64,000 nucleotides of DNA from positions 36,452-100,451 of the forward strand of contig JABCTZ010000045.1 of assembly GCA_018238155.1 (NCBI GenBank). Reading direction: 5' to 3'. How positions within the stretch are numbered: position 1 is the stretch's first letter; the number at the start of each line of letters is the position of its first letter. This DNA is from Candidatus Heimdallarchaeota archaeon. Its GTDB lineage: Archaea > Asgardarchaeota > Heimdallarchaeia > JABLTI01. The notes below the pieces were generated by a model. That model was given only the letters and a program-made list of their open reading frames with translations, was not told the DNA's origin and ran no database searches. Positions 9,614 through 11,395 of this stretch are shown here, piece by piece. The position numbers were made by a program, and so were the translations under genes.

Positions 9614-10792
9614 ATGGATGACTTATTAGAAAAGGAATTAAAAAGGCCTTCTTTAATTAAAAATCCAAGAATCTTAGATTTAAAATATCTACCAAAGAAA
9701 CTTCTCCATAGAGAAGACGAACAAAGAATGTTAATCAAATATTTCAAACCAATTATTGAAAATTCTGGTAAGTATTCTCAAAATGTAACAATTGTTGGTC
9801 CTGTAGGAACTGGAAAAACAGCTATTGCTCTTAAATTTGGTGAAATGATTAAAGTATATTCAACACAAAAAAGTATTAACTTAGAATATGTTCATGTAAA
9901 TTGTCGTAGAGCTCGATCAAGTTTTCTTACTATACTTGAGATTGCGAGAAAATTTAATCCGAATATACCAGTCAAAGAATTTAAGCCAGATGAAATTATT
10001 AACATGCTTGTCAATTTACTTAACCAAAGGAATTCTTTTTTGATTATTACATTAGATGAAATTGATTTTATCATTCAGAAGGAAGGTTCAGATTTTCTTT
10101 ATGATTTGACCAGGCTTACTGATGATGAACTGGATGAGAAGGAACGTATATCTCTTATTACAATAGCTCGTGAAAGTGAATTTAGAAAATTATTGGATGA
10201 TAGTACTCTTAGCACTTTGAGACAAAATATAATTTCATTGGTACCGTATAATGAAGATCAATTGAGAGATATAGTAAAAGATAGAGCGAATGAAGCTTTT
10301 TATGGAGACGCGGTTTCAGCAGAAGCTATTGATTTAATTTCAGATATAACTTCAAAAAAAGGAGATGCTAGATTTGCTATTGAATTGTTGGAACGTGCTG
10401 GTATGTATGCGGATCACAAACAGTCATTAAAAGTTTTACCAGAACATGTAAGACATGCAAATACATTAGTTCATCCTATAATTAGACAAGAAATTGTTAC
10501 AGATTTAACAAAGAAACAACAAATTATTCTATTAGCTACTGCAAAACAACTTCTGTCAACTAATAAAGCATATGTGACTTTAGCTGATGTAAAAACTGTT
10601 TACAAAGAACTGTGTAAGGATTATAAGCTGCCAATAAGTGAACATGCACAAATATTAGAATATCTACAACATTTAGAGTATTGCAATTTGATTGCAATAA
10701 AATATAGTAAAAAGAAAAAGCAACAGACCTTGATTAGTTTGTTGGATGTTTCAGCTGAAATAATTAAGAAAACAATTATGGAACAATTATAA
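9614..10792 (+). CDS. cdc6: Orc1/Cdc6 paralog (element-borne copy)
   Basis: Walker A GPVGTGKT, VHVNC, Walker B ITLDEID, GDARFAI, C-terminal wHTH; 47/60 identical to 43565-44761 over the first 60 aa. Confidence 0.93.
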   Translation: MDDLLEKELKRPSLIKNPRILDLKYLPKKLLHREDEQRMLIKYFKPIIENSGKYSQNVTIVGPVGTGKTAIALKFGEMIKVYSTQKSINLEYVHVNCRRARSSFLTILEIARKFNPNIPVKEFKPDEIINMLVNLLNQRNSFLIITLDEIDFIIQKEGSDFLYDLTRLTDDELDEKERISLITIARESEFRKLLDDSTLSTLRQNIISLVPYNEDQLRDIVKDRANEAFYGDAVSAEAIDLISDITSKKGDARFAIELLERAGMYADHKQSLKVLPEHVRHANTLVHPIIRQEIVTDLTKKQQIILLATAKQLLSTNKAYVTLADVKTVYKELCKDYKLPISEHAQILEYLQHLEYCNLIAIKYSKKKKQQTLISLLDVSAEIIKKTIMEQL

Positions 10793-10852
10793 AAAACTGC
10801 AAATGACGTAAATGCAATTAAAATTAAAGATGAAGATACGACTGAAGATAAA

Positions 10853-11395
10853 TTGGTGAAAGATGTAAAAAAACTTCTAAAAATGTCATTTGAAGGAAAT
10901 TTCTTTGACGTTAAAAGTGCATATGATAAAACAAATAGAGCAGAAATGACCAAAGATATAATCGCTTTAGTAAATTCATCAGAAGAAAACAATAATACAG
11001 CATATGCAATAATTGGTATTGTAGAAAAAAATCAAAAATTCGTTTCGGTAGAAAATGTGGAGAAAATAGATATCATAGAACAAAAGATTGTGCATTGTAT
11101 AATACATAATACTAATCGAAAAATAAATCTACAAATAAGAAAAATAAGAATCTATGAACTCTATCAATGGCAACAAAATAACGAAATTACAGATGAGATA
11201 GTTTTTACTGAAGAGCAGAAAAAACTGGAAAGCAAAGAGCAAATATTAGTAATACAATTAAAGAGAGAGCCAAGAGTGGTTTATGAATTGGCAAAGAAAA
11301 CAGGACCATATGAAAAAGGGAGATCATGGAAAAGAATTGGGTCACATACAGATGAATTAACACAAGATGATAGAGAAAAGCTAATGAAAATTTAA
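10853..11395 (+). CDS. Schlafen/AlbA_2-domain protein (in frame with the upstream cdc6)
   Basis: EGNFFDVKS...KDIIALVNS...AYAIIGIVE and C-terminal WKRIGSHT fit the AlbA_2 pattern. Confidence 0.75.
   Translation: MVKDVKKLLKMSFEGNFFDVKSAYDKTNRAEMTKDIIALVNSSEENNNTAYAIIGIVEKNQKFVSVENVEKIDIIEQKIVHCIIHNTNRKINLQIRKIRIYELYQWQQNNEITDEIVFTEEQKKLESKEQILVIQLKREPRVVYELAKKTGPYEKGRSWKRIGSHTDELTQDDREKLMKI

Follow-up and report, generated by a model that had tools for sequence, protein, structure and literature searches.

Prokaryotic Schlafens are established anti-phage tRNases, of which 97% are joined to a presumed sensor (PMC13056530). Here we describe a locus in which a predicted nuclease of this type follows, in the same reading frame, a paralog of the replication initiator Orc1/Cdc6. 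The locus occupies positions 9614-11395 of a 64,000-nucleotide stretch of a Candidatus Heimdallarchaeota archaeon genome (NCBI GenBank assembly GCA_018238155.1, contig JABCTZ010000045.1, positions 36,452 to 100,451 of the forward strand), which we refer to as the window. It consists of the Orc1/Cdc6 paralog (cdc6) and a downstream Schlafen/AlbA_2-type open reading frame (ORF; slfn), with an in-frame TAA between them. We believe, with moderate confidence, that this unit represents an Orc1/Cdc6-Schlafen sensor-nuclease defence protein that has recently been split into two genes, which are probably co-transcribed.

The unit shares with prokaryotic Schlafens such as RorSlfn5 (PMC13056530) a single-lobe Schlafen/AlbA_2 nuclease, the Ex4(E/D)xK motif, a variable presumed sensor, and, in a sister species, a location in a defence island. 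However, the partner here is a genuine Orc1/Cdc6 paralog, a type of partner absent from those given in the main text of that study; the nuclease is C-terminal, whereas the catalytic residues E15 and D20 of RorSlfn5 lie near the N-terminus; the host is an Asgard archaeon; and in the window's genome the two parts are separate ORFs. A similar arrangement is found in Cash, the CRISPR-associated Schlafen (CbCash, PDB 9ylu; PMC13462974), which cleaves tRNA and in which a Schlafen effector is under the control of a fused nucleotide-binding sensor. In Cash this sensor, Csx15, binds cyclic tetra-adenylate (cA4) from type III CRISPR, whereas the present unit has no CRISPR link and an AAA+ initiator paralog in the place of Csx15.

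ATPases of the ORC/Cdc6 clade are core components of BREX-like systems, in some cases with a HEPN RNase fused to them, as in HEPN-DUF499 (PMC12839542). These AAA+ ATPases, BrxC, BrxD, and DUF499 with HEPN, resemble our unit in that an ORC/Cdc6-type AAA+ module with a winged helix-turn-helix (wHTH) serves in immunity. However, they represent ancient, highly diverged clades, while the Cdc6 described here is a recent paralog that is 66-69% identical to the cell's initiator and passes TIGR02928. Precedent for an Orc1/Cdc6 paralog that has moved from replication initiation to signalling is provided by the DNA-damage regulator Orc1-2, although this protein is a transcription regulator without a fused effector domain (PMC6061795).

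The mammalian proteins SLFN11 and SLFN13 have the same nuclease fold and an acidic active site, but in them the N-domain forms a two-lobe pseudo-dimer, a helicase is fused C-terminally, and a Cdc6 module is absent; the likeness is one of fold and logic, not of orthology. SLFN11 couples tRNA cleavage to single-stranded DNA and replication stress. In the literature searched we found no description of an architecture that brings Cdc6 or Orc1 together with Schlafen.

The split locus and its fused ortholog

The cdc6 gene (9614-10792; all features are on the forward strand unless stated otherwise) encodes a complete protein of 392 amino acids (aa) with AAA+, lid, and winged-helix parts and ends with the TAA at 10790-10792. 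An earlier note on this DNA had claimed that the frame continues past this stop, and translation confirmed the coordinates: 20 stop-free codons (10793-10852), here an intergenic spacer, lead into a 180-codon ORF that runs to 11395 (10853-11395). The sole canonical starts of this ORF are TTG 10853, GTG 10856, and the internal ATG 10883, as had been noted, giving products of 180, 179, and 170 aa, respectively. At least 20 open codons follow the stop in 42% of the long frames of the window, where the coding strand is purine-rich, and a composition-based estimate for the same frame together with 20 open codons is ~0.05; an open run of 200 codons holding a whole domain follows only one of the 45 long frames, the runner-up being 48 codons. 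Inspection of 10793-10852 revealed no run of four or more T between cdc6 and the Schlafen ORF. Alignment also bore out that cdc6 ends four residues before its 68%-identical paralog (43565-44761), and it ends 5-6 residues before the host orthologs of the genus.

The note had further proposed that the two parts were, or still are, a single fusion of ~593 aa, for which uninterrupted versions should be sought in Asgard genomes. Our search covered 61 related genomes, and such a version was found in a congeneric Candidatus Heimdallarchaeota metagenome-assembled genome (MAG), G009. The orthologous locus has an open frame of 599 codons with an uninterrupted Cdc6-linker-Schlafen ORF of 595 aa, which is 89% identical to the window and is annotated by NCBI as one 595-aa gene with Cdc6 Pfam domains. 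In the codon alignment the TAA at 10790 corresponds to CAA (Gln) in G009, TTG 10853 to TTA, GTG 10856 to GTA, and ATG 10883 to ATC. Since no in-frame start occurs in G009 from codon 378 to codon 446, its nuclease can be made only as a fusion. A covalent link between the Schlafen domain and a second domain is thus present in G009, whereas in the window the TAA separates the parts.

The 20 spacer codons of the window are the interdomain linker of the G009 protein, with 16 of 20 residues identical, no insertions or deletions (indels), and 87% nucleotide identity; the intergenic DNA flanking the unit is 43% and 74% identical to G009 and contains indels. By blastn, homology with G009 begins at 9469, 145 nt upstream of cdc6. 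The two genomes are nearly identical over the ~95 nt that immediately precede the cdc6 ATG, while farther upstream the sequences are unrelated, and we consider the conserved region (9469-9613) a putative promoter and 5' leader of the cdc6-slfn unit.

Another MAG of this species, deposited separately (GCA_018238085.1) and 99.9% identical to the window over 4.5 kb, has the same TAA, TTG, and GTG. Between the window and G009, dN/dS is 0.23 for Cdc6 (dS ~0.23), 0.28 for the linker (only seven changes), and 0.18 for Schlafen, and the linker and Schlafen ORF are free of indels. With family members as outgroups, the Schlafen part has 5 derived changes in the window and 9 in G009, and the Cdc6 part 18 and 15, respectively. 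The dN/dS values indicate purifying selection on both halves, and derived changes have not accumulated in excess in the window copy. Three of the eight start codons that are found only in the window fall within the 31 codons after the stop (binomial P=0.0065, for a stretch chosen post hoc). The Met of ATG 10883 is derived; this residue is Ile in G009 and the closest homolog, and Met in no family member.

Beyond these genomes, word-based protein searches with the Schlafen ORF returned the query itself only, and with the fused protein the G009 protein only. A scan of a contig collection with the fused protein gave G009 and an unrelated Woesearchaeota Cdc6 only, and a scan of JGI metagenomes found no relative. 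There were no other Cdc6-Schlafen fusions or adjacencies in the 25 HMMER matches described below, nor at the Schlafen loci present in 18 of the 400 Asgard genomes covered.

A 123-aa ORF on the minus strand (10621-10992) crosses the cdc6/slfn junction and is open in G009 too (111 aa, L011 12949-13284); it most likely results from the purine richness of the sense strand.

The nuclease domain and the Cdc6 paralog

The assignment of the downstream ORF to AlbA_2/Schlafen, made in the earlier note, was borne out by homologs, fold, and catalytic motif. Direct scans of the ORF against Pfam, NCBIfam, PADLOC, and PHROGs matched nothing, and Pfam PF04326 did not match the ORF itself even at E<=10. Of 100 hits obtained with language-model features in the ESM Atlas, 97 gave PF04326. 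When 1.8 billion representative proteins were searched exhaustively with HMMER, 25 matches were obtained, with E down to 7e-38. The homologs P0005, P0013, P0016, P0017, and P0024 pass the PF04326 cut-off and P0023 lies exactly at it; these proteins match the window ORF at E 1.5e-26 to ~7e-4 in the same search. In 24 of the 25 matches the Schlafen domain lies inside a longer protein, the remaining match being a 116-aa fragment, and in the closest matches it is C-terminal. Together with the G009 fusion, this disposes of the possibility that AlbA_2 homologs always stand alone and that no fused version exists. The domain therefore behaves as a fusion module, though none of the 25 matches has a Cdc6 part; the partners upstream of it in these relatives are HEAT, TPR, LRR, and WD40 modules with Roc/Ras GTPase modules. 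We also considered whether the ORF is the remnant of a HEAT-Schlafen gene cut by an insertion, and rejected this as no HEAT-type N-terminal part was found in the window's genome.

An AlphaFold2 (AF2) model of the ORF built with a 26-sequence alignment reached a predicted local distance difference test score (pLDDT) of 94.1 and a predicted template modelling score (pTM) of 0.87, whereas the single-sequence fold was useless (pLDDT 36). When the model was compared with the PDB by Foldseek, the best 35 matches were all N-domains of SLFN11, SLFN12, SLFN13, SLFN14, or SLFN5, the SAMD9 tRNase domain, or bacterial AlbA_2 proteins, with E from 8e-5, probability 1.0, and moderate TM-scores of 0.4-0.5. 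Sequence-profile comparison with solved structures gave CbCash (PDB 9ylu, E=0.007) and SLFN12 as the best matches. The first helix of the model spans the residues between the TTG and the ATG and aligns with the L-x-K-x-LLK stretch of the family; a TTG or GTG start would thus give the whole domain, whereas an ATG start would cost it one helix.

The predicted catalytic motif E-x4-D-x-K (within FEGNFFDVK; 10892-10915) is intact, with E and K invariant and D present in at least 90% of the 26 family members. The corresponding motif, Ex4(E/D)xK, is required for tRNA cleavage and defence in RorSlfn5 and SLFN11 (PMC13056530). A candidate for the third active-site acid is a Glu (11024-11026) that is invariant in our alignments A1 and A2 and lies 39 residues past the motif Asp. 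In rSLFN13, D248 lies 38 residues past E210 (PMC5862951), and this spacing suggests that the invariant Glu may be the equivalent of the third acid of rSLFN13. The downstream ORF is, then, a Schlafen/AlbA_2 domain with an intact catalytic motif and a predicted nuclease, probably an RNase.

In a third MAG of this species (GCA_018238125.1, L031 1-299), the Schlafen ORF is preceded by the 3' end of an IS110-like transposase gene, with the join at window position 11026, right after the codon for the invariant Glu. The IS110-like sequence has a visibly higher G+C content, lies at a contig end, and was not found in the window's genome; the join is either a real disruption by an insertion sequence (IS) or a chimeric contig end.

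The Cdc6 half is readily recognised. It matches Cdc6_lid (PF22703; 8e-22, score 77.3 against a cut-off of 27), Cdc6_C (PF09079; 1.9e-12, 47.4 against 25.1), and AAA_22 (4e-10), and scores 273.5 bits with TIGR02928 (Orc1/Cdc6), for which the cut-off is 181.3. Walker A (GPVGTGKT) and Walker B (LDEID) are present and the same as in the host orthologs, and G65, G67, K68, T69, D148, and E149 are invariant in alignment A3. The host-type cdc6 of the same contig (43565-44761, 398 aa), which lies outside the unit and only 33 kb from the Schlafen-linked copy, shares 88-89% identity with its counterparts in four further genomes of the genus. Since identity among the host orthologs of the genus is 88-98%, whereas both Schlafen-linked copies are 66-69% identical to all of them, the Schlafen-linked cdc6 is an older or faster-evolving paralog.

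The divergence is unevenly distributed. Among columns invariant in the host proteins, 28 of 79 are changed in the winged helix compared to 36 of 246 elsewhere (Fisher P=1.4e-4); by domain, 35% are changed in the winged helix, 17% in the AAA+ module, and 5% in the lid. This pattern would fit a changed specificity for DNA or partner with the ATP switch kept. We did not find the host-type cdc6 and its neighbour gene in G009, in which this region is most likely unassembled as the contig ends 6 kb past the fusion gene. A predicted complex of Cdc6 with the Schlafen domain scored 0.00, which counts neither for nor against binding.

The tRNA-Leu island

The unit lies at the right-hand end of a variable island of ~8 kb. 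The left boundary is a tRNA-Leu (3407-3494; ARAGORN), whose G009 ortholog is 98% identical (C63:35437-35524). The right boundary, just downstream of the Schlafen ORF, is a 47-nt direct repeat (11468-11514; repeat search, family D2, 85% identical) of the 3' end of this tRNA-Leu (3448-3494). Searches for tRNAs and against Rfam found in the repeat neither a complete tRNA nor an RNA family. Given that it keeps a pairing T-stem, and that it is conserved in G009 with compensatory T-stem changes, the repeat resembles the 3' end of another, functional tRNA-Leu allele more than it does a duplicate in decay.

Common to both species are the left flank up to ~4240, the cdc6-slfn block, and the downstream ABC and MFS transporter genes, while the cargo between these fixed ends is unrelated and measures ~5 kb in the window and ~16 kb in G009. 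The G009 cargo includes an SngC-like DEAD/MZB/metallophosphatase helicase (6e-22), a complete type I restriction-modification system (methyltransferase 1e-173, restriction endonuclease 7e-183), and a YgjP-like protein, and a dCTP-deaminase-like gene lies in a 3.6-kb insert just downstream. The G009 island is clearly a defence island. In the window the cargo comprises a LAGLIDADG-like protein, a PD-(D/E)XK nuclease (5420-6154; Pfam, PADLOC), and wHTH proteins, among them one of 627 aa (6928-8811) with matches at the level of wHTH only. As the genes at 6928-8811 and 5420-6154 are both absent from the G009 island, the cdc6-slfn unit is not tied to them.

Independently of how the split arose, the position of the unit between tRNA-Leu and a repeat of its 3' end might point to a role other than defence. 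Archaeal integrated elements often carry cdc6, and the Cdc6 described here could be the initiator of an element integrated at tRNA-Leu, with Schlafen as its addiction or host-control module. However, the cargo is wholly different in the two species, which have only the cdc6-slfn block and the left end of the island in common, the neighbours in G009 are restriction-modification and helicase defence genes, and neither an integrase nor any other replication gene was recognised in either island. We consider this explanation rather unlikely. A defence role, in which Cdc6 would act as an ATP- and DNA-dependent sensor that licenses the Schlafen RNase, is the reading best supported by homology and context.

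Several smaller features of the island deserve mention. The LAGLIDADG-like ORF (3596-5179) lies next to tRNA-Leu; its first ~220 residues are ~60% identical to those of the first gene of the G009 island (L029 8626-10251), after which the two diverge, and the G009 counterpart also has an XRE-type HTH. A stretch of ~39 nt (11554-11592) is present once in the window and twice in G009 (L011 13851-13889 and 17463-17501), where its copies flank the 3.6-kb insert. This insert holds two ORFs of unknown function besides the dCTP-deaminase-like gene and appears to stem from a second insertion into this hot spot. The sibling MAG GCA_018238085.1 (L030 1-315) departs from the window at 7756, inside the 627-aa wHTH ORF; its contig-end sequence was not found in the window's genome, and the divergence reflects either strain variation or a chimeric contig end.

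Fission, fusion, and the meaning of the split

We propose that the two-gene state of the window arose by fission of an ancestral fusion and that the unit serves in defence. Several observations weigh against this proposal. The unit is known from two species only, both of them represented by MAGs. No obvious Shine-Dalgarno motif lies at a workable distance from the starts of the Schlafen ORF, as the earlier note had pointed out, and expression of the ORF is presumed. If the IS110-like join is real, the nuclease would be dispensable in this species. No recognised defence genes were found among the island neighbours in the window, where PADLOC matched no system, and no PADLOC model matched the fused G009 protein. 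At the site of the stop, the host genes have GAA or CAT, G009 has CAA, and the window has TAA; since fission and fusion each need two changes, this site is uninformative on polarity, and a loss of starts in G009 after fusion is plausible.

The last two points belong to a reversed course of events, in which the two-gene state would be ancestral and G009 would have fused the genes through a TAA-to-CAA stop loss and then lost useless or harmful internal starts. We regard this as the less probable direction, though a serious one. Besides the tie in parsimony at the stop site, it gains from the changes TTG-to-TTA and GTG-to-GTA, which are synonymous and fit the AT bias of a 30% GC genome, from the argument that selection could favour a fused, toxin-like effector that has lost its internal starts, and from short, nearly stand-alone frames of the Schlafen family in other Asgard genomes (182, 254, and 265 aa). 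However, given that the domain is part of a longer protein in all 24 full-length relatives from the exhaustive search, that an in-frame, stop-free spacer would otherwise have to have pre-existed (~0.05 by composition), that the ATG of the window is a derived gain, and that the Cdc6 tail appears to run two codons past the TAA, we favour fission of an ancestral fusion over a never-fused lineage, without regarding it as proven. In fact, the cdc6 stop stands 4-6 codons ahead of those of the host genes, and the alignment with the host tail extends for two more codons (xAA AAA), which fits a junction that removed the original stop.

Other accounts of the TAA fare less well. It could be a recent nonsense change that silences the nuclease half, leaving the ORF as an undecayed remnant with three starts by chance. 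Fresh pseudogenisation of this kind would agree with the lack of a convincing ribosome-binding site, with the IS110-like end joined inside the ORF at 11026 in the third MAG, and with the quick turnover of defence genes. However, the ORF is intact over 180 codons, has no frameshift and no excess of derived changes (5 against 9 in G009), and its three new starts cluster at the domain boundary in a way that is unlikely to be due to chance, while the IS-like join is of foreign composition, is absent from the window's genome, and lies at a contig end, so that it may be a chimera; we think pseudogenisation improbable. Part of the earlier proposal, that the unit was a ~593-aa fusion and is now split, is thus the course that we favour, and a fused ortholog exists. 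The other part, that readthrough of the TAA still yields the full-length fusion today, is not upheld. The continuous frame and conserved linker are what readthrough would need, but TAA is the ordinary stop of the host cdc6 and of the Schlafen ORF itself, the stop is not conserved since the G009 ortholog encodes Gln, no RNA family or structure was detected around the TAA, and downstream starts would be needless if readthrough sufficed, all of which make readthrough highly improbable. An error of assembly or sequencing, with CAA as the true codon and the gene fused in the window too, would come to mind for a MAG of 46 contigs with 5.9% contamination in which one base decides. We give this very little credence, as the identical TAA and starts occur in a separately deposited MAG with different contig ends, and as four co-occurring differences from G009 are not the product of one base error.

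Based on recent fission of an ancestral fusion, we propose the following model. A diverged paralog of the host initiator would have been joined, via a linker of ~20 residues, to a C-terminal Schlafen/AlbA_2 RNase module. In the window's genome a C-to-T change (CAA to TAA) would end translation after Cdc6, and three nearby substitutions would supply TTG, GTG, and ATG at the very start of the Schlafen domain. As a result, a 392-aa Cdc6 and a nuclease of ~180 aa would be made separately, whereas the sister species keeps a single 595-aa protein. The Cdc6 module may work as an ATP- and DNA-dependent switch that responds to foreign origins, replication intermediates, or a viral factor that targets initiators, and the switch would bring Schlafen domains together. 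The nuclease could then cut tRNA or rRNA, resulting in an arrest of translation and a defence of the abortive-infection type. In such a scheme Cdc6 might serve as a sensor, as a decoy, or as part of an addiction mechanism.

A more specific proposition, which we put forward tentatively and think possible rather than likely, is that a duplicate of the replication initiator of an Asgard archaeon was recruited as an immune sensor or guard, so that foreign origin DNA or a viral factor hijacking Orc1/Cdc6 switches on a Schlafen tRNase. If true, the unit would provide a prokaryotic precedent for the link between Schlafens and replication stress known from human SLFN11, and the natural fission would demonstrate that a two-gene form can function, with sensor and nuclease acting in trans. 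That Schlafen is partnered with a recent paralog of the cellular Orc1/Cdc6 points to replication initiation as a process that may be monitored by immunity. The unit occurs in Heimdall-group Asgard archaea, which are the closest known relatives of eukaryotes, and eukaryotic Schlafens connect replication stress to tRNA cleavage. Furthermore, the fused and split alleles of the two sister species, one stop and three start codons apart and both under purifying selection, represent a natural experiment that allows one to ask whether a cut sensor-effector still works and how fission or fusion proceeds step by step.

The Schlafen domain of the window belongs to an Asgard-centred subfamily (P0002-P0026; loci L039-L045), members of which have HEAT, TPR, LRR, and WD40 with Roc GTPase modules, or N-terminal transmembrane segments, attached. 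The architectures that combine HEAT, TPR, LRR, or WD40-Roc with Schlafen resemble those of NLR-like immune proteins.

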